A DNA stretch of 63,764 nucleotides, filler included, from Reticulomyxa filosa (Eukaryota; Protista; Foraminifera), in NCBI GenBank assembly GCA_000512085.1. It is 13 parts of 13 records of this genome, joined end to end, with 100 filler letters (N's around TTAATTAATTAA, not from the genome) between each part and the next. Parts side by side here need not be neighbours in the genome. Positions count along the whole stretch, not along the records: positions 19,195 to 23,914 come from ASPP01039567.1; 12 more parts are not named here. One strand, given 5' to 3'. The translations under genes and the position numbers were made by a program. Below, piece after piece: positions 1 through 35,300 of this stretch. Position 1 is the first letter of the stretch; each line of letters opens with the position of its first letter. A model generated the notes under the pieces. The model did not search any database and was not told where the DNA came from. It worked only from the letters and a program-made list of their open reading frames with translations.

Positions 1-20
1 AAACAAACAAACAAACAAAA

Positions 21-2805
21 AGAACACAATGTTGTTATCAAGTTTGCCACAAATCCAAGATAGCGTGTGTGAGTTATTTGGAGAAGGGGACAAAGACAAA
101 GACGGTGAGAGTACAGTCCAAACGATGTTGCATGTGTACATATGTGTATACGTTTTTTTGTTGTTTGTTATTACGACATGCCAATGAAAATGTGTGTGTT
201 TGTGTGTGTATGTATGATAACAAACAATGATCACCACGAATGAAGGGAAAATTAAACGGGAAGAGTTTTTTGAAGTAATGCAAAAAATTCTTCCAGGTTC
301 ATCTTACGTTGAATTAGACCAATTGTTCGAGCGGTTGGACATTAAAAAAAGTGGAGCCATCGACTATGAAGAGTTATTACATTCTGCTGCAGGAGAAAAC
401 TTTCTCAAAGTTTTTTATTGTTTAAAAAAAATATAATAAAATAAAATGTGTACATGCATATATAACATATAAATAATTATATATGTATATGTACATATAC
501 ATATATATGTATATATTTTTTTTTTTGATTTGTAAAATGAAAAAAAAAAAAAAAGAATATATTGGGACTGGAAGACGACAATTCGTCAGTGAAAGCCTTG
601 AGTCCTCGGAAACATGTAAACTTGAACTCGTTCCAGACGGGCAGCGGCAACAAACCGCACACGCACGTACACAATCGGAACAACTCGAACGGCTCGTTCG
701 TGGTGAAGGGTGGCAATCTGCCGACGCATACCAAGAAAAGGGACAGCATGGAATCGATTGGGTCTTCCATCGCCGAGGCAGAGAGTGACCAGGGCGGTCC
801 TTGGCGTCGGTCACAAAGAACCATGCTTGTGCATTCGGACACACATCATCCCAAAGACCTGGATACCATCCATCAAATGGTCTGCTAAACAAAAAAAAAA
901 GCATTCAATATCATATATTATATATATATATATAATATATGATATTGAATGGTTTTTGTTTTTTTGTTTTTAATGGTTGCAATGTGATGTGTACGTTACA
1001 TTACAACGAAAGAAATTGCAATTGCAAAACCTGCGTGAGGACAACAAAAAGGCGAAGCCATTGGAAAAAGAGTTGCGAGAATTGCGAAGTGCAATGGACG
1101 TGATGAAGTCAGACAATCAAAGATTGGAATTGCAATACGACGACGTAAAAAAAGAGGTTAGTTTATATATACATATATGTATATACACATATACACATAT
1201 ATATTATCTCCTTTTGAATTGCATTCGCTATAAAGCACTACTCTTTTTTTTTGATTGACCACTTTTGCAATGTTTGTGACCAACGTGCATATATGCTTGT
1301 GTGTGTGTGTGGTTTTCAAAGCTCGAAGCAGTGCAATCCGAACGCAGTGAATTGCAACAACAAAACGAAAAGCTTGAACTTCATTGCAAACAAATGGAAA
1401 ATAGGATGGAAAGCGCCGTGGTGCAGCCCACGACGAATGAAGAGGACCGCCTGGACCAAATCCAGAAATTGGAGACCACCATCCTCGAATTGCGCAAGGA
1501 CACGGATACACTCTCCGAACAGGAGCAGAGCATGCATCGCACCTCTTCGACCCAGCGCGATCGCATTCAAACGCTCGAGTTGCAAAACACACAACTCCAA
1601 CAGCAACTCTCCACAATGGCCAATCGCTTGTCCGAACAAAGCGACACGTCCGAAGGTCTGCAGTTTGAATTGCTTCGCACTCAAGACTTTTTGCACAAGC
1701 GCATGAAGAGTGCCATACATTTAAAGCAAGAAGTCATTCAATTGCTAAAACGTTTAGGTTTTTTTTTTTTTTTGTTTTTTTTTTTTTTTTTTTTTTTTAA
1801 TAAACAAATTTTTAAATATGTATATGTATTTATTTGTTTATTTATTTGCTTATATGTGCCCATATTGTAAACCTGTTTGTTTTGTTTTACATGTTACTTC
1901 TAGTTGGTGACTCAAGACACACTGGCCAAAGCAATTGAGGTAAGACCTTCGTATATTCTTTTCTGTCCTACTCCCTCTCACTCACTATGTGCTGGCACTT
2001 TGCACATAGGAGCCGTCGCCGAAAAACAAACAAGAAAACAACATTCAATTTCGGGTGAAAAGATTGTCACGCAATATGTCTCTTGAGGCCATCAAATTAG
2101 CAAATGAAGCCACCGTTCAGTTTGATCTCTTCTTTTTCCACCCTCCTCTTCTCCAACAGTAACGTAATGTTATAACATAGTGAATATGAACACATATATA
2201 TATATATATACATATATATACCTATATGTATATGTATATGCATAAATGTATATTGCCTTTGCATTGGATAAACAGAAAAATGGATTGAATGCTGAAGCGG
2301 AAGCGAATGAACTCGGAGATGAAGAGCCCCAGGATTTGTCGGTTCAGTTGTCGCACTTTGAAGATGAATCCGCTGATCCCGTGGAAAAGTCACAAGAACC
2401 TGAGTTGCAACAAGATATTTCCACTAAAGAATATGAACACAAACGCGACCAAATCCTCGAAAAACACAAACAAAATATTGACGCTTTGAAAAATCAATTC
2501 CAACTCCAATTGAAACAAAAATTAGATCAAGAACAAGAAGAGGTATGTCTTTTTTTTTTTGCCTTGTGTTGTCTCACTTTCAAAGTGCCTTTAAAAAAAA
2601 AAAAAAAAAAATGAGAATGAAATGGCTGGAAGAAATTAAAGAAAAACTCCAAGAAGAAGCACGCTTGCAACGTTCTGAAAAGAAACGTGGTGATATGGAG
2701 ATAGTATCTCCAAGTAAAACAAATCTGAAAGAACCACTCTTGCCAAAGGATGAGGAAAAATCATCTCGGTTTAGTTGTGTCATGTGTGGCTTTGGGTGTT
2801 GGTAG
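21..2805 (+). CDS. Multi-exon EF-hand + long coiled-coil protein, 5'-partial; exon limits approximate
   Basis: EF-hand-like loops DKDKDGE (~90-110) and DIKKSGAIDYEE (337-372). Heptad/Q-E-K-rich exons in ORFs 977-1258, 1301-1870, 2246-2614 and 2545-2805, separated by GT..AG AT-rich introns. Ends in Cys-rich SCVMCGFGCW*. Confidence 0.65.
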
Positions 2806-3174
2806 CTTGCTAAAAGAGCGAGTTTTAAAAAGCAGATAATTATAATAAATAACTCATCGCATCTACTTGTGAAACATGTATTTTTATTTGTGCTTAATTT
2901 ATGATCGACGTGATGTTAAGATATTTTTCTTTTTTTTCTCCATATATACCGTACTTGAACCTTTTTTTAAAGTAAGCAACAATCGTCAACGTCATGTGAT
3001 TTACTTAACTATTACAAAAAAAACTATTAAGAAAAGTTATTTCAAGAAGAAGAGCTGTTTTGGGTAGTATTTCAAACAAAGGACTGTACGTTTGGAAGGG
3101 GAGAGACCTGGACAAAAAAGTGAGAAGAAAAAAAGTTAATTCCAAAATATTTCATAGTAATACTATATTAAATA

Positions 3175-4477
3175 ATGTCGTGGAATTGGAATGATTCTTC
3201 AGAGTCAGTAGATAATCCAAATCGTGATGTGATTGTAAAAGACCCGCCAAAAGGGAGTATTTCATCTTTACGATGTTCGCCGACACGTAACATGCTGGCA
3301 GTGGGTTCTTGGGATGCTCATGTGCGAGTGTATGAGCACGATAACAATGGAAATACAAGATGTTTAGGTTTAAAAAAGCACGACAAGCCTGTTTTGTGTG
3401 TATGCTGGGATGAAACTGGACAGCACGTTTTCAGCGCAGGTTCGAACATTTTTTTTTTTGGAAAAATCTTTCCAGCATATATATTGACTAACACAAAAAA
3501 AAAAAAAAAAAAAAAACGGCTGTGACAACACTGTGCAAATATGGAATCTGCAAAAGCAATCATTTCAAGCACTAGGCAACTATCACAAAGCCGCAATAAG
3601 TGACGTATGTTACGTGAAAGAGAAGAACACAGTGATAACAAGCAGCTGGGACGGCAGCATAGCATTTTGGGATTTGCGCATGTCGCAACGAGGCATGACG
3701 ATCGACGACATAAAAGCAAAGATATTCAACATGGGTTGCAAAGAGGTATTGCTGGCTTGTACGCTCAGCAACCGCCATTTGCGCTGGTATGACATCCGCA
3801 ATCCACGACAACAAAATGACGTGGAAAGCGCGTTTCAAACGCAATTGCGAGGCTTGGACTGTTTTCCTAATGGCGCAGGATTTGCCGTCGGCTCTGTGGA
3901 AGGACGAATTCAAGTGCGCTACATTAACAAAAAAATGCAGGATGAGAAAGGCTTTTCGTTCAAATGCCATCGCCAAGACGCGACAGACAAGAACTACTCT
4001 TACAACAACACCTCCACACACGTTTACAGCGTCAATGCTTTGCGCTTTCATCAAGAAATGGGCACTTTGGCAAGTGGGGGCTCTGATGGCGAAATCAGCA
4101 TTTGGGACAAAGATGGAAGGTTATTTATTTACTTTATGTGGTGTCGTCTTTTATTATTTATAAATAATAATAGATTTTTTTACTTTATCTAACCAACTGT
4201 TATTTATTAACAATTATTTTTTTGCTGCTTGTTATTGCTAAATTATATGTAACCCCACTCAACACACAGAGCTCGCTTGAAACATTTGGCTTGCATGAAA
4301 CTACCCGTTGTCTCTTTGGACTTCTCGCGCGATGGCTCTGTACTAGCTTATGCCACCAGCTATGACTACAGCAAAGGATTTGATGCAAATGCTCTTGAAA
4401 AAGAAAAACCTCGCATATATCTGCATCGATTACAACGGGAAGATGTCGATCCTAAAGCCAAGAATAACAATAGCTAA
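3175..4477 (+). CDS. RAE1: mRNA export factor Rae1/Gle2 (WD40), 3 exons (3175-3439, 3519-4119, 4270-4477)
   Basis: Family motifs GSWD, GSVEGRI, FSFKCHR, VYSVNALRFH, GTLASGGSDG, WDKD-R-RLK and AYATSYDYSKG. The last matches Rae1 SYDWSKG rather than Bub3. Confidence 0.85.
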
Positions 4478-5312
4478 ACTTTTCTTTCCTTTTGCTTGCT
4501 TCACTTTGTTCTTCAACCTTTTTTATTTTTTTTAATTCTTCCATTCAACTACTTCAACCATTTTCTTTTTTTTAAAATGTCCTTGCACTGTAATAACTCA
4601 TCGGTTGCTTTTGTTTGCATCCGAGCTTGTCCTTTGCTCCTACTTTGTTGTTGGTTGTTTACATTTCTATTGGCGTGTGCCACTGGATGGAATAATAATA
4701 ATACATTGGCTGAAATGATAGTTTTGCTCAACAATTCTTTCTGTGTCTTGGGTGTAGTTCGTGACAGTGTTTGTTTCGAGGTTTGCCATCCCCCCCCCCC
4801 CCATGTCTCAAAAATTATTTATTGAAGTAATAGATTTATAACAATACACTTAAAGTACAATCATTTTCACGTTTTGAAGTAAAATTCTTACATTCTTTAA
4901 TATATTTTTTCAGTGTTTTGAAAAAATTTTTAATAGTGCAAAAAACAAACAAAAAGAATTCCAGCACCTCACGTTATTACTTTCATGAACTTACAAGTGA
5001 AAATGTTATTTGATAACTTTAGACCCTTTTGTAAAATGTTACTTTACTAACCTAGTGTCGACTTGTAGTGTTTGAATCAGTTTGGTCCTTTTTTTTGTCG
5101 TTATTTAGCTTGCTCCGAGGGCAAATACAAGCAAACTTCTCTGTAGATAAAAAGTTTTGGTAAAAAAAAAAAAAAAAGTGATGTATGAAATTTTGTAAAG
5201 GGTAAGGGACCAGGACCATCATTAGGTTTTTAACTACCTTAATGGTAATCAAGTATTGGCAACTTTTACCTAATCGAAATACACGTATCTGATTAGACTA
5301 AAGTTGCAGTGC

Positions 5313-14179: not shown

Positions 14180-14215
<36 letters not shown>

Positions 14216-17200
14216 GATAAGATTTTTTACTTCAATTGACATGAGAGAAATAAACACACAAACAAAGAAACGATAGGATAGAATCTGTTGAACCTGTTCT
14301 TTTGATGTGACAAGCGTCGATACTCTGCCAAGACATCCTCATCCCACTCCTCTTTTTTCTTTTCATAGGGTGCTTTATAATGCAAAGCAAAGAAGGAGTT
14401 AATCCAATTCAGGAAAGCGGGCGAATTACCAAACCATTCAATAGCTAACAAAATGCCAAAGTAACCGAATCCTTCGATCAACATTACCCACAAATCCAAG
14501 CCGGCTGCTCGTTCATCGTATACACTGATTTTCTCATGCCATAAAAATGTAACTCCACGAGTGGCAATACCACGATATGCGTCCCCCATACAAAAGGCTG
14601 GAATAAAGCGATAGACAATCTTTAATTTGGAATTGGTTCGATGCAATGATGGATCGTCAATAATATCCATAACCCAAGCTGCTACCATGGCAATGACGGA
14701 CATCGCCCAGTACACCAAAATCATAAAGCCTTGCGCAGTGGAAGGACTACCAAATACCAAACTCATTAGATAAGTGAATGGAGTAATGGAAAATCCATAT
14801 GCGATTGCAACTAAAAATACAGGGAAAAGAGCTTCTCCAACAAATAATGCCGATTGGAAAAATACACAATACAGCATTAAAAAGAATGCCGGAATAAATG
14901 ACATTGCGAAATCAAAAATATAATTGCCAAGCCAATATGATACAATATCAACACCGGACACCAATTGTTGATGTTTCACCATGGATACACGTTCATCCAC
15001 AAGCATGGCAATAAACGCCGCAGGCACAAATGATAGGCCCATTGCAAAGTTAATACTTGTCATAAAAGCGTTTGCCGCATCCACGATTTGTTGTTGCGAT
15101 GCGGTACGAGCAAATGGATGAGAAGCTGTTGCAATATTAGCATCAAAATCACCAGTCAAACGTTTTGTGAGTGATGTAGTAGCCAAGTTGTATCCTGTTG
15201 GGAATCCGTGGAATGCAGACGAATTGGCACCAATAATTGCAACAGAGGGATCAATTACTTGATTCATCCAAAATGATATGTATCTTGCTGTTACGTTATC
15301 TTTTCGTGTTCGGAGCAGTAAATCTTGCCATTGTGGTAATGATATATTGCTTTGATACGCCGTTGATTTATATCCAAGCCATTGTTGTCGTAACTTAGCG
15401 TCATTGTCATAATCATCCACTATCTCCATAAAACTAGGTGATTGATAATAACTCTTTACTGCCGATGGATCATATACATTGTAAGGAATGGTCAATTCTT
15501 CGTTTGATTTTGCTACAAAGTCCTTTTTTTTTGTTGTTGCCCCCCCTCCCATGTTTATTTGTTAATCCTATGGTATTTGCCCCTAATTAAATATATTATA
15601 AAACAATTCAAAACTTGTGTGTTAAAATAATACAGTGGCTGATCTTGCCACCAATCAATTCGAATGAACAATAATCCCAATAACATAAATATAGAAGGAA
15701 TTAAGATTTGACATAAAAACGTTTTATAGTCGCGTTTTGCACTGCGATATCGCTTTTGCAAGATGGCGCCCACGTGTAGCCAAAACAATCTGCTTGTGCA
15801 ACCGTTACTCATGTTATGAGCATCAATCAAATTTTCTTCATAATGCGCGCCTAGTATTTCGTCTTTGACCACCGCATCATACCCATCTAAGAATGATGGT
15901 CTTCGAACTGGCTCTGGAGTTGCTGCTCTATCTTTCGAGGTATCTTTGCTATGATCATTCGTGGTCTATATACCACCATATACACATTCTATTTGTATCC
16001 ACACTCTTTCTCTCTCTCTCTCTCTCTTTCTCAAAACAAAGATTTTGAAAAATGAAAAAAAAAAAAAAACAAATGAAAATAATAAAACAAACTGTAGATG
16101 GACGTTTTTGTCCGTCTTGATCGTTGTCCACATGATCACTTGGTTTGGACACTTCCCCCATTTCAATGTTGGTAATCGTGGTTCTTCCAGTAGAAGGTAA
16201 TGGTAATGTCTCAGCATCTAGTTGAGTTTTCTTGCCTGAATGACCACTCTGACTTACTTCACTTTTTTCCTCTTGAATATTGCTCTCATCATCAGTGGCA
16301 ATTTCTAAATGATTTGTTTGTCGTTGTTGTTGTTGTTGCTGCTGTTGTTGTTGATGTTGGAATTGGTCCGTGTTTGTTTTCTCCGGCAATGTGACTGGTT
16401 TATATCTGCCAGTATTTGTTCCAGTTACCTTTTTCTTCTTCCACCATTTCATCCCAGTTTCTTGCACTTGCAGAGTGGAATCTTTACTGCCATCTGAAGA
16501 TATTCTTTTCGAAATCGATTCTTCTTTTGAAAAGATAGCCGTTCGATTAATCATTCGAAACACTTCTTCCAAAGTGGTTGCACTAATGCCATACTTCACA
16601 AAGTTCAAACGATCACGATTTTCATCAAAATAGCGGAATAGAGTTGGTAGCATTGCATTATTTTCAAACGAAATACGAAATACCACTTCATTTGCTGCGT
16701 AACCGATGCATTTGCAATTTTCGTCTTTTAACACATGTTGGATTTCATGTGCCAAATTTCTTACAATTTGTGAGTCACTGTTTGTGCTCAGCGATATTGT
16801 TAAGGCATATCCAACATCATAGCGTTGCTTCAAAAAGAATGGAGAACCACAGCACATAAGTCTGCCATGAGCCATAATGCCAATTCGATCGGCCAAGATT
16901 TCTGCCTCGTCCATAAAATGCGTGGTTAAGATAATGCAGCGATTTTTTCGATATTCACGAATTAACTCCCAAGTTGCACGTCTTGCATAAGGGTCCATTC
17001 CCGTCGTTGGCTCATCCAAAATCACAATACTGGTTCGTCCAATCAAAGCAATGCATACACTTAATTTTCTCTTTTGGCCTCCTGACAATTGCATTGATAA
17101 AAACGCTCGTTTCTGTGAGTCGCAAAAAAGCAAAATCAGTAGCATGAATGCGATCAATGTAAAGAAAGGCAAGGAGATACATACACGGAGATACACACAC

Positions 17201-18997
17201 ATATATACATATATATATATATACATATACATATATATATATATATACATATACACAATGTTAACCTCTCGTAATCCCACTTTTGTCAATAACTCCAAAC
17301 ATAATTGATTTAATTCCTCTCCTTTCATACCATTCAAATTACCATAAAATTGCAAATGCTCCCATACGGTCAATCTTGGATACAAGATATCATGCTGTGG
17401 ACACAATCCCATTCGTTGCCGTACTAACTTCAAGTCATTGACCAAACTAAATTTTCTTCCACAATTGCATCACCATGTGTCACTGGCACCATACCCGTCA
17501 ACATATTGCAGGTCGTTGTCTTACCTGCTCCATTATGTCCAAGCAAGCAAAACACTTGATTGCGATACATTTTCAAATTCAAATGATTCACTGCTACATT
17601 TGTTCGTCCATGTTCTCCACTGTATACTTTGGTCAAGTCTTTTAATTCTAATATCGGTGCACCACTTTTTTTTTCGTCCACTGTTTCAATTGATGCAACA
17701 TCAATGTCGCGGTGCATTTGTTGTGATTTGTCCAAAATTTCTTTTTCATCAACTCGACTATTTTATTTCAAATGCGCATATACATACATATATACATTTA
17801 TACACATATGTATACATCACAAACATTATTCTCATCTTGACTTTTTTTTTTGTGAGGGAAAAACAAAATAAAAAAAAATAAAGTTGGATAACTGTATTCT
17901 GCAGACATGTTGTAAAATGTATTGATAACAACTCCAATCATCCATAAATTCAAATGGAGCATACCATGGTCTTCTCACTCCATATTCAGTTGGGAGAACG
18001 CGATCAAAATACAGCATTAACAAGCAATACACTACAGCATCGAAAAACATATACCACAAGGCAGTGCTCAGTCGGAAATACATTAATTCATTATATTCAC
18101 TCACATTGCTCCATTGAATACCAATTTGATATTCTTCATACTTTGATATTTGCAATATTGCTAACAAACAAATCAAAAGCAAGACATATATTTTTTCAAA
18201 AAAAAAAAAAATTGGAATAAAAAGACAAATATAAAATATCGCCCCTGCCCTCTTTGCACTTAACCCAATCCAAAAGCAGATGGTCCAGATATGCATACAG
18301 CATCTTTAGCAGATTCATGAGGTGCAGTCTCCACGAAACGATATATAAAGAATAAAAACATAAACAGCACCCATGCCATGGTTGCACTCATTTTCGGTTG
18401 ATTGAAAAACGTCGAAATAAGCATTGCGAGTGCAATCATATCCATTCCAAATAACTCGATTGTGATGAACAAGATGAAAGGATGGGTACGAGTGAATATC
18501 CACACAGACAACAGCCACGTCAAAAATACATTGGTCAAAGAGAACATTAGCCAATACGTTAAAGCGAATGATGTCAAATATGCGGCATTGCTTCCGCCCA
18601 AAATTCGAAATCCTTCTTTTAATCTCCATACTTTTTCTTCCACCAATGTTTTCGTTATTATGCAAAACGGATATGAGAATGATATCGCCATAAACAAAGG
18701 CAGCTTTGTTTGTTATTTTATTTCGATTGCATATTTATACAACACATAATAAACAAACACACAAGCAATTAGGCCAAGAGATTACAAAACAAGTCGCTCA
18801 ATGATAGGCCAGAATGAGTCGTCTTCATACGGTGAAAATGGAAATTGATGAAGACCAATTTTCAAACGCAATGCTTGAACTTGATCAATGGTCCACAAAA
18901 AGGATTGGTCCAAAGCGTTTTGGAATCCCAAAAATCCACTGCGATAGTATTTGTATACACTTTGTTGGGTCAAAAAAATTGGCGACATACCATACCT
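12661..18997 (-). CDS. ABC transporter subfamily A (full transporter), multi-exon, 5'-truncated by the contig end
   Basis: Two NBDs: GHNGAGKTT / LSGGQKRKL / [10 protein letters not shown] / TTHFMDEAE and GLNGAGKTT / LSGGNQR / DEPSSGMDP / [16 protein letters not shown] signatures [16 protein letters not shown] and SQTSLEQIF. Two TM blocks. Confidence 0.95.
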
Positions 18998-19194: not shown

Positions 19195-19213
19195 AGGGCT
19201 TAGGGCCTAGGGC
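19195..19213 (+). repeat. Telomere-like heptamer repeats AGGGC-TTAGGGC-CTAGGGC at the element 3' terminus / contig end
   Basis: Units contain the TTAGGG/CTAGGG core. Only about 2.7 units are visible before the contig ends. Confidence 0.55.
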
Positions 19214-19244
19214 CGCGGACGACGCTTGCGCGTCGTCCGCGGCC
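19211..19244 (-). other. Perfect 15-bp GC-rich hairpin with GCAA (GNRA) tetraloop on the element sense strand
   Basis: GGCCGCGGACGACGC-GCAA-GCGTCGTCCGCGGCC on the minus strand. Confidence 0.92.
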
Positions 19245-19283
19245 TTTTGGCCTTTTGGCCCTGTTTATGTGTCATTTATTCGC

Positions 19284-19525
19284 GTGCCTAGCATGGTATT
19301 TGTGTGTGTGTGTGTGCCTAGCTTGATATTTGTGTGTGTGCCTAGCTTGCTGTGTGTGTTTACTGTGTATGTGCCTAGTATGTGTTGGTTGTGCCTAGTG
19401 ATTGTGCCTAGTGTATTTGTCTATTGACTGTGCCTAGTATGATATTTGTGCCTAGTGATGTTGATGTTTGTGCCTAGATGTGTTTGTGCCTAGTGTGTCC
19501 TTTGCCTTTTGTGATTTGTGCCTAT
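19284..19525 (-). repeat. Array of 10 exact CTAGGCAC octamers (+1 variant) with unique spacers in the retroelement 3' UTR
   Basis: GTGCCTAG on + at 19284, 19314, 19338, 19371, 19391, 19404, 19430, 19448, 19470 and 19486; variant GTGCCTAT at 19518 overlaps the RT stop codon. Confidence 0.92.
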
Positions 19526-21600
19526 TGCCTGTGTGTATTCCCTTTGTTTAGTGATCTGATAATGTTGTTGATGTCGCGATTTTTGGTGTATATTATTCGG
19601 GTTCTTTTGCCCGTGTTCTTTGATAGCTCCATTTCTGCTTCTTTGATGTATTTTCGTTTGATATTTTTGTGAAATGGTACATTGATATTGATGCAGTCGG
19701 TGGGTATGATGTATTTTCGCTGTCTTTTTTGTGTTTGTGTTTCCCACAGGTCGATCAATCTTTCTTTGATGTCCATTCTATGATATCCACATTGCCATAG
19801 TTGTATTTGTATTTGTTGTTGTGCGTTATGATATATTTCAGGCGTGGCTGATAGTCTGGCGATTCTTTGATTTATGCTGCGAATGGTTTGTAGGTACCAT
19901 TCTTTTTGTCCATGTGATGTTGGATTGATGTATGGTTGTTTTGTGACGTGTTTTATATGTGGTTCAAATGTGAATTTGTTTTGTAGTGTGTGTATTTGTG
20001 TGTTGTCGTTGTTTTTGATGGTGATCTGTGTATTTTCATTTTGGAGTGTTGTATTGTCTGTATTTGGAATGCTGTTGCTTGTTTTTATGATTAGATCGAG
20101 AAATTTTTGTGTGTTGCTGCATTCGCCAATGATTGGCCACTCTTTTTTGTACATGTATGGTATCCATTGTGTGATCACGTCGTATACGTTGATTTGATTC
20201 ATGTCTACTATGAATAGGACGTCATCCATGTATCCATACACTTTGAATATTTGTGAGTTGGTGTCAATGTGTTTATGTGTGAGAAATTTTTCTTCGCAGT
20301 AGTTGCGTACGATTTGTGCAGTTGGAGGGGCATCACTGTCTCCTTGTGCTAGACCTTTGATTGTTTTGTAGTATGTACCCTCTATTTCAAATGCTGACAT
20401 GTCAGCAAGGTTTCTGTAGTAGTCCAAGATGTATTCGAACTTTGTTTGATTTTCATTTTGAAAATTAATGGACATTTGTGTGTGATAGTGTGTGTATGCG
20501 TCAATGATTGTTTGGTATTCAATTTGATTGTAGAAGTCTTTGATATCGATGCCAATCATTATGTAATTTCTGTTTTTTCCTTGTAATTTGCGTATGCTTT
20601 CGGCTACATCATATGAATTTTTAATGCACCAATTTGTTCTACTTGCAATGTTGTCAAGGTACATTTGTGCTATCTGTTGTGCTTTTTTGGAAAGGTCTCT
20701 TTTGTATGTGTGGAATGATGATATGATTGGTCGGTATACGTGTGGTTTCTTGTGCAGCTTTATGATTGGGCTGCATTTTGATATTGTAGGTTTTTCAGGA
20801 GCATGTGTGTTGTGTGTGATGCTTTGATGTTTGTTTTTGAACATGTTGAATATATTCTTTTGTTTGTTGAGAATGCTGTCGAGATCACTTGTGGCTTCGT
20901 GTTGTGGCATGTGTTTTAACTTAGCCATGAGTTCATTATGTTGTTTGTCGTCGATGATGACGATTCCCTCATTGTGATCTGCAATGACGAACTTTACCTG
21001 CATCTCCTTTTCTATTTGCATTAATTTGGACTGTATGTTGAATGTGTGTGCATTATGTTCTTGTATTTGTGCTGCAAAATTGTCGCACGTGTTGTTTATT
21101 GCATTAGATTGTTTGTCGTCAATGTGGAGCATTTGTTGTGTTAGTTGGTCTAGTATGTTGCAGGTTCTGATGTTAGGTATACTTACTTTTTTCTTGATTT
21201 GTTCTTCAAGAAGTATATTCCTAATTTTTGCGTCGATGTTGTTGTTGTACGTTTGTATTGCGTTGTACGTACTGTTTTTGAGAGGGTTGTGTGTGTTGTT
21301 ATACGTATTTGTTTGATAGGGTGAGAAGTTCTTCCCTTTTGCAATTTGCTCGATGATTTCGAGGGGAATTTGTTTGTTGGTGAGTATTGTGACTTTTTCT
21401 TTGAGAATATCGGTCACGTATTGCAGATTTTGTTGGTGTATGTTTTCTTTGTTGGAATTTTTGCGAGAAAATATGGTTTTGTTGTTGTGTATGATGAGTT
21501 TTGCGAGTTGGAGATGTGTTTTGTTTTTTGCCGGTGCCTTTGAACGTTTTTTTGGGGGTTCAAGGGTGTCGGTTCTTAAACAAAAAAAGACGGCCTTTTT
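19522..21600 (-). CDS. Penelope-like reverse transcriptase (ORF2); frame open from 21600, probably expressed by -1 frameshift from ORF1
   Basis: PLE motifs in order: IAKGKNFSP, IADHNEGIVIID, PIIKLHK..YRPIISS, motif A GIDIKDFYNQI, motif B KGLAQGDSDAP, motif C YMDD (20221-20232), FLDL, thumb YINPTSHG..IRSINQRIARLS..CGYH, INVPFH. Stop follows with no GIY-YIG domain. Confidence 0.9.
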   Translation of the reverse strand, partial: KKAVFFCLRTDTLEPPKKRSKAPAKNKTHLQLAKLIIHNNKTIFSRKNSNKENIHQQNLQYVTDILKEKVTILTNKQIPLEIIEQIAKGKNFSPYQTNTYNNTHNPLKNSTYNAIQTYNNNIDAKIRNILLEEQIKKKVSIPNIRTCNILDQLTQQMLHIDDKQSNAINNTCDNFAAQIQEHNAHTFNIQSKLMQIEKEMQVKFVIADHNEGIVIIDDKQHNELMAKLKHMPQHEATSDLDSILNKQKNIFNMFKNKHQSITHNTHAPEKPTISKCSPIIKLHKKPHVYRPIISSFHTYKRDLSKKAQQIAQMYLDNIASRTNWCIKNSYDVAESIRKLQGKNRNYIMIGIDIKDFYNQIEYQTIIDAYTHYHTQMSINFQNENQTKFEYILDYYRNLADMSAFEIEGTYYKTIKGLAQGDSDAPPTAQIVRNYCEEKFLTHKHIDTNSQIFKVYGYMDDVLFIVDMNQINVYDVITQWIPYMYKKEWPIIGECSNTQKFLDLIIKTSNSIPNTDNTTLQNENTQITIKNNDNTQIHTLQNKFTFEPHIKHVTKQPYINPTSHGQKEWYLQTIRSINQRIARLSATPEIYHNAQQQIQIQLWQCGYHRMDIKERLIDLWETQTQKRQRKYIIPTDCININVPFHKNIKRKYIKEAEMELSKNTGKRTRIIYTKNRDINNIIRSLNKGNTHRQ
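21531..21588 (-). promoter_or_regulatory. Putative programmed -1 ribosomal frameshift signal
   Basis: Slippery heptamer T TTT TTT (21588-21582) in ORF1 phase. About 9 nt downstream lies the stem-loop CCG..CCTTGAAC / GTTCAAAGG..CGG. ORF2 is in the -1 frame. Confidence 0.65.
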
Positions 21601-23914
21601 TCAAAGTTTGTGTGCCTTGCATCTCTATAAAAGTTCCGGTTAGTTGCATGGTAGTTCCTTCTGAAGGTTTGCCAAGGTCTTTGTGTAGTTGGCGAGTTGT
21701 TATTTTGACTTTGAAAGTTTGTTTGTTGACTAGGTTGGTTTGTTTGTTGACTGTGCGTGTGACTGTAGACTTCTTGCGTTTCTCCAGCTTTACATTGGTT
21801 GTGCCAATGATTTCCTCCGCATTTTCTGCACAGCGATGGAGGCTCTGGGTGTTTGCCTCTCGCGTTATTTTCTGTACACTGATCTGTACCTCTTATATAA
21901 TTTTTTATGTGCGACCTTGCGTCGTTGTGAGTTTGCCGTCTCATGTTCCAATTTATTTTCTGGCTGTTCCATCTTTCTCTGCGTTGAAACACTTTTCCCC
22001 TTTGGGGCTGCGACATGATATTATTGTGTTGTGTTGTGAAATTATTGCGTTGCGACATTGCGTCACTGTGAATGTGATTGTTTTGTGTTGTTTCTGCAGC
22101 TATGGGGCATTGATTATGCCAGTGCATTTCGTTGCAGAATTTGCATGGTTTTGTTGGCATTTTTGTTTGATTGTCTTGCCATTTGTTAAAGATGTTTGGT
22201 TTTTTGTTGAAAGTGTTTGGCTTTCTGTAGAAAGGTGCATCTGGATGTTGATATTTCATGTTGTTTGTTTTATGCCAATTGTTTTGATACTTAGAGCGCT
22301 GATGCTTTTGATTTTTGAATTGATTGTTTTTGTTTTTCCAATGAGTTGTATCTGTTCTGGCCCTGTTCTTTACTGTGTTTTTTCTGCATTCATTGTTCCA
22401 GTGGTTGCCGTTGCAGTATTTGCATGGTGTTGGTGGTATGTTTTGTGTGATGTTTGTTGCGTTTTGTTCCGTTTTATTATTTTGTGTGTTGTTTGTATTT
22501 TTAGAACATTCACTATCCCAATGTTTACCATTACAGTGCTTGCATGGTCGTGTTGGTATACGTTTTATAGTTTTGTGTATATGTTTTTGACCTGCATCTT
22601 GTGTGTTGTTTTGTTGCATATTGGTTTGACTATTGATATATTTATTCTGCTGTGTGTTGTGTTGACTATTTGTGTAATTATTTTGTTGCTCATTGTTTTG
22701 TTGCTCATTGTTTTGTCCGTCCATATTGACGTCGCTGTTTTGTGTTTTTATTTTGCATATAGAATGATGATGCTTTCTGTCTCCACAGTGTTTGCATTTG
22801 TATTCGGGGCAGTCTTGGAACCAATGAAATGCATTTTTGTCGCAATTAATGCATGTGTTTTTTGGTGTATTGTGTGGTTGTAGTGATTGGCATGTGTATA
22901 TATTGTGTCCAATTTTGTTGCATCTCATGCATTTGACGTTTAGGTTGTTTTCACTGAGGATCCTGTCCATTATGATATTTTCTTTTCTCATTGTGGATTG
23001 TTTGATTGCAGCCTTAACTTTTTCATCGATTTGTATTGGTGGTGCAGCATTGATGCATGTATGAAAATAATAATTTAAATTATCATATGTATTTTGATTT
23101 GGTTGTATGTTTTGTATATTATTTTTAATTGCGTGTAGTGTTTCTTGTACTTCAAGGAGTTTGGATAGAAGTTGTGTTAGATAAACAAATGTTCTCATTT
23201 CTCTTATTTTGGCTTGATTGAGATGTATGCATTTAGTTTTGATTTTTGTGTCATTGCATTGTATGATAGGTTGTTTTACTTTCCATCTTATCCGTAATTG
23301 GTTTGCGATTTTGATTGCGTAGCTTTGACATAATCTTAGGTTCGAGCACATTTTTATTATCCATGTACTCATTTTTGTTGTATTGTGGTCCATATCTGCG
23401 GATGTGTCGATGTCTTTTGTGCATGTGTTTTGTATTTTTAATTTTTGTAGGATTTCTGGCAGTTGTGTGCATATGTCATTGATTATATTGTCATATTCGC
23501 CTGCATCATGATTAGTCGCATATATGGTGCTCCAAAATATGGCGTTTATATTTATTCCGTCGTTGTATATGGCAGTATTTTGTTTTAGCACCCCGAATTC
23601 CTTAAAGTCAATGTGTGTGTTGCTTTGTGTGTTTGTTATTGTTTGTTTTAGCCATTGTATGGCGATGATTGGATTTATTTTGTCAAAATTATCTTCGTTG
23701 TTTTCATTGATTTTACATTCGATAGGTGTTGTGTGTTGCTGCCCATTATTATCTTGGTACTCATGATTTTGATGCTCACTATCATCTTGTTCATGATTTT
23801 GAAGCTCATGTTCCTGTTGCTCATCGTTTTGTGCTTCATTTTTTTGTTCCTCGTAATTATTATTAATATTATCATTATTATTATTATTAATATTATTAAT
23901 ATTATTGATATTGG
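21576..23914 (-). CDS. ORF1: Gag-like nucleic-acid-binding protein with 7 CCHC zinc knuckles; frame open to the contig end
   Basis: CMRCNKIGHNIYTC, CINCDKNAFHWFQDC, CKHCGDRKHHHSIC, CKHCNGKHWDSEC, CKYCNGNHWNNEC, CKFCNEMHWHNQC, CRKCGGNHWHNQC. Manual translation shows no stop between 23591 and 23914 (N/Q/E/H-rich). Confidence 0.8.
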
Positions 23915-32386: not shown

Positions 32387-35300
32387 ATGGCCAGTGAATT
32401 TGGATCAAGCACAGATCTACTAAAGATCGAACAAGGCTAAATTAACGAAAAATAAAATATTTCCAAAAACCTAACACAATACATCTGCACTGTTCTTTCT
32501 TTAAAAAACTTTAAGTAAACGGGGGACACGTACGAACATGTATCAAAAAAAAAAAAAATGCAGGACTGGTAGTTTTAGCGGAAATAGATTTTGCTGAAAT
32601 TGATATGAAGGATGACAAATCATCCTTAGAGCTACAAAATGAGGTATTTATGAAACATGTTGACTTGAAACATTGCGTTTCTTTTTTGGTAAAGTGTGAC
32701 GTTCGAAAAGCAAACAAGTATGTGTGTGATATATTAACCACAAGGTGAAGCAAGAGCCAGTTCCAGTGGAAAAGGAAACCGAAAAGCCTGTGGAAAAGGA
32801 AATCGAAAAGCCTGTAGTAGAAAAGGAAATCGAAAAGCCTGTAGAAAAAGAAATCGAAAAGCCTGTGGAAGAGGTAAAGCATGAAATCGAACAAAACAAG
32901 TACACGAAGGAAATGAAGGCATTGACGAGATTGAGTGGCGACACCATTAGCGGAGAAGAATTGAGAAGACAACTCGAAGAAAGCAATGGCAATGTGTCAG
33001 CTGTAATTGAAAAGATCGTGTTTAAATTGATGAATCAACATGTATATTTTTATATATTTATGTAAACACAAAATCAAATTAATTAACATCACAAATAAAA
33101 AAAAATAAAAAAAAATAAATATAAATAAAAATAAATAAAAGATCGAAACTCAAGGTTTGGACAAAGAGAATAAAGTTAATAAATAAATACAAATTATTAT
33201 TATTATTATTATTATTATTACATATATAATACAAACATTATATTGGTAATAAAAAAAAAAAAGATTAAAGATATCGAAGAGATGGAGCCAGGTGAAAAAA
33301 GTAAGGAAAAATTGAAAAAAGAAGAGGAGGATGAAAAAGTTGGAGAAATAAAACCAGGAATTAATTTGCAAGGACATTGTGAAAATAACAAATGCTTGGC
33401 TTCGAAAGGAAGACTTCTTGTGTGGATTAATATTGGATTTGCTGAGATTTCATTTGTTTCGGACAAAAGCAATTTTGAGTGTCCAGATTGCAGAGAAAAA
33501 ACAGTGACATCAATTACCAAGGCCATGTTTTATAACTCGAATCATTCAATTCGTGCCAGGAATGATAACACAAGAGCTGTGGAAGATAATAATTATCAGT
33601 GCACATATACAATTATTTCTGGACTTTCCTATGAATTGAAAGCAAAAAAGATTAGACAGTTTGCGGAAAGTATTGAAGATTTGATAGATAGGAGTGAGCA
33701 AGCAATGAATAGTAAAGAATTAACTAATTTGGTTATGGAATTGCAAAAATATGATATTACTGTTATAAAACCACCCAATTTGAAAGGGAATGATCGATTA
33801 TTGGAAAAAATTCAAGCAGATTATGATGGTGATTTCAATCAAGTATTCGATATTGGAAGATTTACTATATTATGTGATAATCCAAACAAATTGCAAGCAG
33901 CAGTGGCAGTGATTAAGAAAGCAGATCAATTCAATCTAATTGTATCTGAAGATAAAGATTTTTTTAATAAACAATCCAAAACACATCATAGATTTCACAA
34001 TATTAAATTATATGTCCCAAAACATAAAGTTTATGTTGAAATGCAAGCAACATTAAAAAATTTTACAACGTTAGAGGGATATACCACAATTGAAAATCCA
34101 AAACTGAGTCATTCATTTTATGAACAAATTCGAGCATGGAAACCTAGTCCAGAAGAGGAAGAATTAAAACAAGCAAGTGATGAAACATTAATAAAAATTA
34201 ATGATATAATTTGTGAATGGATTGATACAAAAGAAATTAAAAAAATTGCTAATCGTTACAAACCACATTCAAAAATTGGAATATTAAAACCTCCACAATT
34301 AAAAGGAATATTTGAAAAAGATGTCAATCTTATGGATAATACTCCATTAAAATTATCTCAATTTTCATATGATCAACTTTGTACATTTAATCCTGAAAAA
34401 GAAAAAGGAAAAGCAATTCATGTAATTTTATTTGAATATTTTAGAAAATATATTATGAAAGAGATAAATCCGGCAAGTCGTGCTGATATTGCATCAATAT
34501 TAAAAGAATCAAGAAAAAAAGAATTAGAAGAAGATGCAGCAATATTTCAAGCACTTGAAACATATATTCCATTACAAGCAAATAATTATCCATTTACTGA
34601 TAATAATAATAATAATAATAATAATAATGCATATGATTGTTATCAATATATTATTGATTTATTAGAAAAAAAAGAAGAAAAATTAAGTGAAGAGGAAGAA
34701 GAAAAACAAATAAAAATAGAAGGAGAACAAAGTGTAATAATTTTACAAGGAAAATCAGGAGGAGGAAAAAGTTTTATTTTGTCGCATTTAGAACAATCTT
34801 TATGGGAAAAATATATAGACGGTGACTCCACATCATTAATTCCTGTTTATATTTCATTACCAAAGTATTATAATGAAATAAATGAAACACAAATCATTTC
34901 TCAAGCTTTACAAATGAAACAAATAAATAAAGATATAATTGAAATTATCCGTGAAAATATGTCATTTGTATTTATATTAGATGGCTTTGATGAAATTTTT
35001 GATAAATATAATAAATACAATAAAAATAATAGTGATAAATATTTTTGTGATAGATTTAATTTAAGTGAATGGAATGCAAAAATTATTGTTAGTTGTCGTA
35101 GTCATGTATTAAATGATTATGATATTAAACATATTTTAATTGGTGAAGATAATACAAAAATACCAATGATATATTTATGGCCTTTTTCAAAAATGCAAGT
35201 TTATGATTATATTGATAAATTTATTAAAATAAATAAAAAAAATTTAATTAATGATAATTCTAATTGGACAACACAGCAATATAAAGAAACATTAAAAAAT

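Follow-up and report, generated by a model that had tools for sequence, protein, structure and literature searches.

Could a contig of the foraminiferan Reticulomyxa filosa carry a retroelement that copies itself onto chromosome ends? The window considered here, i.e., the whole stretch of 63,764 nt, is made of 13 contigs whose joints read N44-TTAATTAATTAA-N44 (12 artificial spacers, window 5313-62349), and because these contigs were joined artificially, neighbouring genes have no physical linkage to the element under study. The latter lies on the minus strand of positions 19195-23914, which are one entire contig of 4720 nt, and comprises two open reading frames (ORF1 and ORF2) followed by a repeated and folded 3' end. 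The first-pass annotation had described one intronless minus-strand unit: the unit is borne out, while "intronless" amounts to open frames as read from the sequence. According to our preferred reading, to which we give a probability of about 60%, this would be a Penelope-like element (PLE) deficient in endonuclease (EN) which, behind an ORF1 with seven zinc knuckles, copies onto chromosome ends via a C-rich RNA 3' end and the G-rich overhang. Directly observable are the PLE-type reverse transcriptase (RT), the lack of GIY-YIG in the sequence present, the knuckles, the repeats with their orientation, and a second copy.

A Penelope-like reverse transcriptase and its relatives

19522..21600, minus strand: ORF2, Penelope-like RT without endonuclease, 692 amino acids (aa)
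ORF2 motifs: N-terminal motif at aa 70-94, DHNEG at aa 207, LHKK/RPIIS at aa 279-293, DIKDFY at aa 352
ORF2 motifs, later part: GLAQGD at aa 416, YMDD at aa 457 (at 20232), then the thumb and a short alpha/beta tail

No RT family came up when the ORF2 sequence was compared directly with Pfam and the PDB, and word-indexed homolog searches returned nothing for either ORF2 or ORF1 and two proteins for the clade alignment. An exhaustive phmmer search with ORF2 yielded 141 matches at E <= 0.001, most of which carry RVT_1 and eight GIY-YIG, while the telomerase RNA-binding family was found on none of them. PLE motifs are shared with ORF2 in register, from the DKG-like motif to the thumb (13 core sequences, 111-row alignment): the DKG/DKN motif reads DHN in ORF2, the N-terminal, core 1-7 and thumb motifs are of PLE type, and the N-terminal one (aa 70-94) resembles that of EN-less relatives. 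This alignment confirms the RT in the -1 frame, with an intact YMDD and Penelope-type motifs, that had been announced from the sequence. Moreover, an AlphaFold model of ORF2 (142-sequence alignment; mean predicted local distance difference test, pLDDT, 77.7) has telomerase RTs (TERTs) at Foldseek ranks 1-8, and in the Atlas the RT domain adjoins clusters at 0.97 with HTH_animal, two of the top three being mostly rotifer. From the sequence motifs and the TERT ranks, the membership of ORF2 in the PLEs is secure.

A GIY-YIG profile built from 20 endonuclease-bearing (EN+) matches recovered 9/9 EN+ controls (E <= 2e-9) and nothing in any of the six frames of the contig at E <= 0.5, it being understood that a profile built from C-terminal endonucleases could miss a very divergent Chlamys-type domain. 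ORF2 stops 89 aa past the thumb glycine, i.e., where EN-less relatives end (71-144 aa among those printed), while EN+ relatives run on into the nuclease (191-248 aa for four of them). The second copy, P0003, is identical to ORF2 at 226 of 235 residues (96%) and has the same last residue, which makes the stop a family trait; in P0003, P0004 and P0007 alike, nothing follows the thumb tail. The claim of an RT devoid of GIY-YIG therefore holds for the 4720 nt present, on the strength of the profile search and of the ends of P0003 and other relatives.

Among the 30 matches that were looked up, six, which are the closest relatives with a name, are Reticulomyxa filosa gene models, located on six contigs of 761-8275 nt, and the others are unnamed or hypothetical; none of the six Reticulomyxa-named matches is an EN+ protein. 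One relative, P0079, annotated as a RING zinc finger protein, has a knuckle triplet followed by a partial PLE RT of the ORF2 type (RT E 5e-14). The pairing of knuckles with RT is thus common to two distant families, the element and P0079, and not due to a chance neighbour. As a side observation, at least six Reticulomyxa filosa gene models (P0079, P0003 and P0005-P0008) are pieces of this PLE lineage.

These resident paralogues agree with the foraminiferan-like host proposed at first. They also bear on the suspicion that the DNA is a contaminant, or that the contig ends in an adapter or a bacterial palindrome, which might be raised by a composition that differs from that of host genes and by the centre of the terminal hairpin (see below), similar to an Rfam family derived from E. 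coli REP (28 bits vs. a gathering score of 59.5). We regard this as extremely unlikely: all six related gene models, each on a contig of its own, bear the name of Reticulomyxa filosa, the 34-nt hairpin occurs in 0 of 185,579 prokaryote genomes, the best plasmid match has an E-value of 0.2, and the GC content of the contig (36.6%) falls inside the range of the window (29-42%).

The nearest complete relative, L001 (31% identical; positions 1-4929), is a metagenome contig with a 4806-nt unit and a 123-nt terminal direct repeat, which implies a circle or a tandem array. Its ORF1 (534 aa) is coiled and Lys-rich, without knuckles, its RT lies in the +1 frame at CTT TTT CGT (482-490, a UUU-CGU site), and 1.4 kb of its DNA are non-coding and without Rfam match. 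We take CTT TTT CGT to resemble a viral +1 frameshift motif. Neither nuclease nor hammerhead was found in L001, a weak six-frame GIY-YIG match having turned out to be a Lys-rich helix without the motifs. L001 supports a two-ORF nuclease-free design, not telomere targeting, and could be an episomal or arrayed PLE. Its non-coding part also contains, at 2677-2687 and in a hairpin, GGTTCGATTCC, which is similar to a tRNA T-loop or Pol III B-box; ARAGORN reported no tRNA there, and no tRNA was found in the window or in L001 as a whole.

Phylogenetic trees were computed from 94 of the 141 matches (those with long enough cores), ORF2 and five bacterial RTs, as well as from subsets of 53 and 37 rows. 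A motif rule assigned the EN+ and no-EN labels, some no-EN rows being merely truncated, and the trees hold no named Athena, Coprina or TERT rows. ORF2 forms a long branch with P0004, P0005 and P0006 (100/100 in the LG+G4 tree). This lineage falls among EN-less rows in the FastTree tree (Shimodaira–Hasegawa, SH, support 97) and in two quick mixture-model trees (SH-like approximate likelihood-ratio test, SH-aLRT, 96 and 98), whereas the bootstrapped LG+G4 tree places it with EN+ Penelope/Poseidon-like rows (88/96), and approximately unbiased (AU) tests reject neither grouping (p 0.26 and p 0.38). As regards the EN-less affinity, three trees out of four thus favour it and one does not, and the AU tests do not choose between the two groupings. 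The profile of the EN-less group scores highest for 7/7 queries (143 vs. 123 vs. 99 bits for ORF2), its members having all been collected with ORF2 as query.

The one discordant tree, whose grouping AU does not reject, leaves room for an offshoot of EN+ PLEs in which the nuclease was lost and is now supplied in trans, or for a nuclease in the missing 5' part of the element. EN losses within EN+ clades are indeed documented (PMC8557442; here and below, published systems are described from excerpts of the cited papers). Nevertheless, L001 is complete and lacks GIY-YIG in six frames, three relatives stop after the thumb tail as reported above, and the Reticulomyxa-named matches are EN+ in zero cases out of six, all of which makes such an origin improbable.

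ORF1, its zinc knuckles and the junction with ORF2

21576..23912, minus strand: ORF1, 778 aa, stop-free and open at the 5' contig edge; Asn/Gln-rich, with a helical middle and 7 CCHC knuckles
22755..22931, minus strand: CCHC knuckles 1-3, a triplet found by pattern (22931-22890, 22853-22809, 22796-22755)
21792..22544, minus strand: four spaced CX2CX3HX4C knuckles found by pattern (22544-22506, 22424-22386, 22145-22107, 21830-21792)
21582..21588, minus strand: U_UUU_UUU heptamer, candidate -1 frameshift site and homopolymer, inside the 25-nt overlap of ORF1 and ORF2

ORF1 remains open where it meets the contig edge, in an (AAT)n-like tract, and has no Met before residue 174, which implies that its 5' end is missing. 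Both frames are uninterrupted, as had been claimed, over the stretch present, and "intact" is limited to that stretch. The pattern CX2CX3-5HX4C occurs exactly seven times in ORF1, in full agreement with the seven CCHC knuckles counted earlier. Pfam matches of zf-CCHC type to the triplet are weak (E 0.08-0.17), while in P0079 the same triplet opens the protein, with 38% identity over 64 aa (E 2e-10). Three of the four spaced knuckles were also recovered as a DNA repeat family. By analogy with nucleocapsid knuckles, we infer that those of ORF1 would serve as an RNA coat and a chaperone.

The single-sequence model of ORF1 (pLDDT 39) is too poor for fold assignment. With this unusable model, no capsid-like Gag fold was found, and the Atlas search with ORF1 returned knuckle clusters alone, all below 0.9. 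Further, neither ORF matches a protease, RNase H, integrase or AP/REL endonuclease Pfam family at E <= 1. A long terminal repeat (LTR) or non-LTR retrotransposon with a Gag was rejected on the lack of these families in both ORFs and on the PLE type of the RT matches. The "unusual retroviral-style Gag-Pol layout" of the first-pass annotation was overstated: neither a capsid fold nor a protease or integrase turned up, the -1 shift falls on a homopolymer, and the literature already has a frameshifted ORF1 in EN-less PLEs and a PLE RT preceded by a CCHC ORF (PMC8557442).

ORF2, in the -1 frame, overlaps ORF1 by 25 nt. Its first Met comes about 85 residues after its conserved N-terminal motif, and ORF2 would therefore need fusion to ORF1. 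A -1 frameshift at the junction is plausible, since it is by fusion that ORF2 would retain this motif and since L001 is split at the same place. In-frame slippery heptamers number 7 in 779 codons, giving a chance of about 5-7% for a 25-nt overlap to hold one. The hairpin downstream of U_UUU_UUU is weak (-10.7 kcal/mol; z -0.68 for the region). Alternatively, the -1 frame might be an assembly error in the 7-T run, ORF1 and the RT being one polyprotein; this concerns the junction only, fits either mechanism of insertion, and appears to us rather unlikely though worth keeping in mind. The site is one of just three runs of at least seven identical bases in the contig, and the weak downstream structure, the long fused N-termini of several EN-less relatives (P0022, P0046) and the annotation of P0079 as a single knuckle and RT protein (a gene model that may have bridged a shift) all point that way. 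On the other side stand the tight overlap with its in-frame slippery heptamer, the L001 split just before the N-terminal motif, with a UUU-CGU site in the +1 frame, and the frameshifted ORF1 already known in EN-less PLEs (PMC8557442).

The 3' end and proposed priming at chromosome ends

19284..19525, minus strand: A/C-rich array in the 3' untranslated region (UTR), ten CTAGGCAC and one ATAGGCAC
19245..19262, minus strand: AGGGCC-AAAA-GGCC-AAAA arm, partner of the terminal repeats in the predicted fold
19211..19244, minus strand: perfect 15-bp GC-rich stem with a GCAA tetraloop, from fold prediction
19195..19214, plus strand: about 2.9 copies of a 7-mer (AGGGCTT, AGGGCCT, AGGGCC; CYTAGGG register), candidate telomeric repeat

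The 3' region of about 330 nt contains ten exact CTAGGCAC copies, spaced by 13-33 nt, and an eleventh, variant copy across the ORF2 stop. By comparison, the commonest 8-mer reached at most five copies in all 2000 of 2000 first-order simulations, and CTAGGCAC has 0 occurrences on either strand of the other 59,044 nt of the window. Every exact copy is one mismatch away from the terminal CTAGGCCC. The stop codon of ORF2 lies inside the first, variant repeat copy (19518-19525). The terminal 7-mers stand at the very edge of the contig and are G-rich on the cDNA strand, the contig end CCCTAGGCCCTAAGCCCT being the sole AGGG-N2-TAGGG-N2-TAGGG run in the window. The final 69 nt have a folding z of -8.6, and the last 68 nt are predicted to form one long imperfect hairpin. 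Counts and fold thus match the ten repeats and the 15-bp GNRA hairpin seen at first; regarding the broader idea of a structured, repeat-arrayed 3' end, repeats and hairpin are real, but the terminal repeats are paired in the predicted fold. Rfam matches to naRNA4 and miRNAs were dismissed as generic hairpin matches below gathering, and a Helitron-like reading (hairpin and CTAG) as no Rep/helicase is encoded.

The sense strand of the element is A+C-rich (GC skew -0.28, AT skew +0.44), while 11/11 other long ORFs of the window have GC skews of 0.00 to +0.20 and AT skews of -0.09 to +0.20. With an A+C-rich sense strand, the outward strand would be G+T-rich. In Drosophila, the telomeric elements HeT-A and TART have such a G+T-rich outward strand. 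Against the 11 ORFs, the strand bias is telomere-like, as expected from the telomeric setting first suggested, and the orientation of the repeats likewise fits telomere priming. Moreover, the plus strand of the contig starts with G-rich TAGGG-core repeats, followed by the element in antisense, which is the polarity of the Coprina-1_Alen layout, with ORFs towards the centromere (PMC13159263). In Athena and Terminons, reverse transcription is primed by base-pairing between the G-rich overhang and short reverse-complement telomeric repeats that lie beside the 3' hammerhead (PMC8557442; PMC6431247; PMC3846280). Known rhizarian repeats share the TAGGG core (AACCCT, 10.64898/2026.07.16.738196), the Plasmodiophora repeat being TnAGn (PMC13746701).

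Under chromosome-end priming, a single A/C-rich RNA would be transcribed, from which ORF1 protein would be made in excess, a minority of ribosomes entering ORF2 by -1 slippage. The knuckles would then form a coat on the RNA, probably over those UTR repeats that contain UAGG, and, as nucleic-acid chaperones, open the terminal 68-nt fold. The freed CCCUAG/CCCUAA repeats could pair with a CYTAGGG-type overhang, the one-mismatch UTR repeats possibly acting as fallback pairing sites, and the RT would extend the chromosome 3' end through the hairpin and the element. The latter would be left pointing to the centromere, with its G+T-rich strand outward.

Beyond the discordant tree and the AU tests reported above, several observations weigh against this scheme. 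The terminal repeats are predicted to be paired with the upstream arm and not free; they number just 2.9 and sit in a 76%-GC patch; and the same 19-nt pattern occurs in 15 unrelated viral loci. No Rfam hammerhead match was obtained at E <= 10, nor was a hammerhead core motif found in the 3' UTR. In sequence profile searches against the PDB, group II intron RTs outscore TERT. Finally, L001 lacks knuckles, telomere-like repeats and strand skew, and has its RT in the +1 frame. Separately, three viral contigs (L011, L017 and L019) have internal arrays of at least five GCCCTAA-type units in the 7-mer register of the element end; they are probably unrelated to it.

Some of these points would suit an EN-less PLE that does not target telomeres, in which the last 68 nt would be a stem-loop recognised by the RT and the "repeats" simply its 3' arm, with priming at breaks or a fixed target, or maintenance as arrays or circles like L001. 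Indeed, the fold closes exactly on the last base of the contig, the 4806-nt unit of L001 combines a 123-nt terminal direct repeat with a lack of telomere-like repeats, and EN-less PLE-X families are found genome-wide or on 28S rDNA (PMC8557442). However, the two arms differ in period (7 for the right one, whose core is TAGGG, and 8 for the left one), so that they are not a simple inverted duplication; in addition, ten UTR copies lie one mismatch from the terminal unit, and the strong strand skew is absent in L001. On this balance, we hold a non-telomeric PLE to be unlikely. A bolder extension of chromosome-end priming would turn the 3' end into a telomerase-like template carried by the element, delimited by the 15-bp helix that immediately precedes the two to three C-rich 7-mers on their 5' side, with a PLE RT that both retrotransposes and repeatedly adds CYTAGGG, and a knuckle-packaged lineage that helps to maintain foraminiferan chromosome ends, or maintains them alone; this we find highly improbable.

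Known elements, novelty and the rest of the window

Among published systems, the Athena elements and Terminons of bdelloid rotifers are similar in having a PLE RT without endonuclease, an ORF1 ahead of the RT that may be split by a frameshift (PMC8557442; PMC6431247), and, directly behind an RNA fold at the 3' end, short telomere-type repeats in reverse complement; besides, the nearest Atlas clusters of ORF2 are mostly rotifer. They differ, as far as the excerpts describe them, by a coiled-coil ORF1 instead of seven CCHC knuckles and by a hammerhead instead of a GC-rich hairpin, while the element has no evident pseudoknot after its shift site, has a rhizarian host, and has an RT that stands apart on a long branch, with about 20-25% identity to other PLEs. 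Coprina elements (fungi, diatoms, spike moss), among which is Coprina-1_Alen, share a size of about 4.5-5 kb, two ORFs, a DKN-like motif (DHN here), and an RT and thumb without nuclease (PMC13159263), and the ORFs of the element would likewise face the centromere. Nonetheless, CCHC knuckles are not described for Coprina-1_Alen in the excerpts of that paper, and its telomeric position is shown (PMC13159263), that of the element being presumed; Coprina was compared by description alone, and no terminal direct repeats were seen in the element, whose 5' end is missing.

A CCHC knuckle of gag-like type in an upstream ORF is known from Chlamys-2_cBra, which in contrast belongs to the Chlamys clade with N-terminal endonuclease, has a canonical hammerhead and is spread genome-wide (PMC8557442). 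EN+ PLEs at large (Penelope/Poseidon, Neptune, Naiad/Chlamys) are set apart from the element by its lack, in the profile search, of a GIY-YIG fused to the RT. If the element is telomeric, it would also parallel Drosophila HeT-A and TART, with their gag-like CCHC ORF1, repeated A-rich 3' UTR and strand bias (PMC10088271), though their RT is a non-LTR enzyme of the jockey type and their tail poly(A), where the element has a PLE-type RT and a C-rich repeat end.

Published descriptions, as judged from excerpts, already cover EN-less PLEs, two-ORF layouts, an ORF1 with a frameshift, and a CCHC ORF ahead of a PLE RT (PMC8557442; PMC13159263). The novelty lies in the lineage, in an ORF1 rich in knuckles and in a hairpin end without hammerhead. 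The literature searched, outside of which were Repbase, Dfam and two primary papers, held no description of a PLE in Foraminifera and no foraminiferan telomere repeat, and Craig et al. mention no Rhizaria in the main text or in one supplement. Likewise, the literature search returned no paper pairing CTTAGGG with telomeres, and no title on a protist telomere of TTAGGGC, CTAGGGC or TCTAGGG type. Telomerase has the PLE RTs as its sister group, and the EN-less ones among them are the best living model for its origin. To these, the element adds a deep, long-branched lineage that is missed by Pfam and annotated as hypothetical or RING-finger protein, and displays a 3' design without hammerhead along with a multi-knuckle ORF1. 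It also offers a concrete candidate telomere repeat for Foraminifera, CYTAGGG, at which its last bases would hint if chromosome-end copying is true; the telomeres of most Rhizaria are undescribed according to the excerpts of PMC13746701.

Two synthetic-metagenome DNA runs (share 0.06) contain identical pieces of 255 nt and 158 nt, located off the junction and the ends; they were not used as evidence. Elsewhere in the window, the minus-strand ORFs of positions 14200-18700 look like pieces of an ABC transporter gene, a family that we presume from their motifs. Lastly, positions 32765-32874 hold a tandem 24-nt/51-nt repeat, upstream of an 899-codon ORF, which would encode an EKEIEKPV-like peptide repeat.

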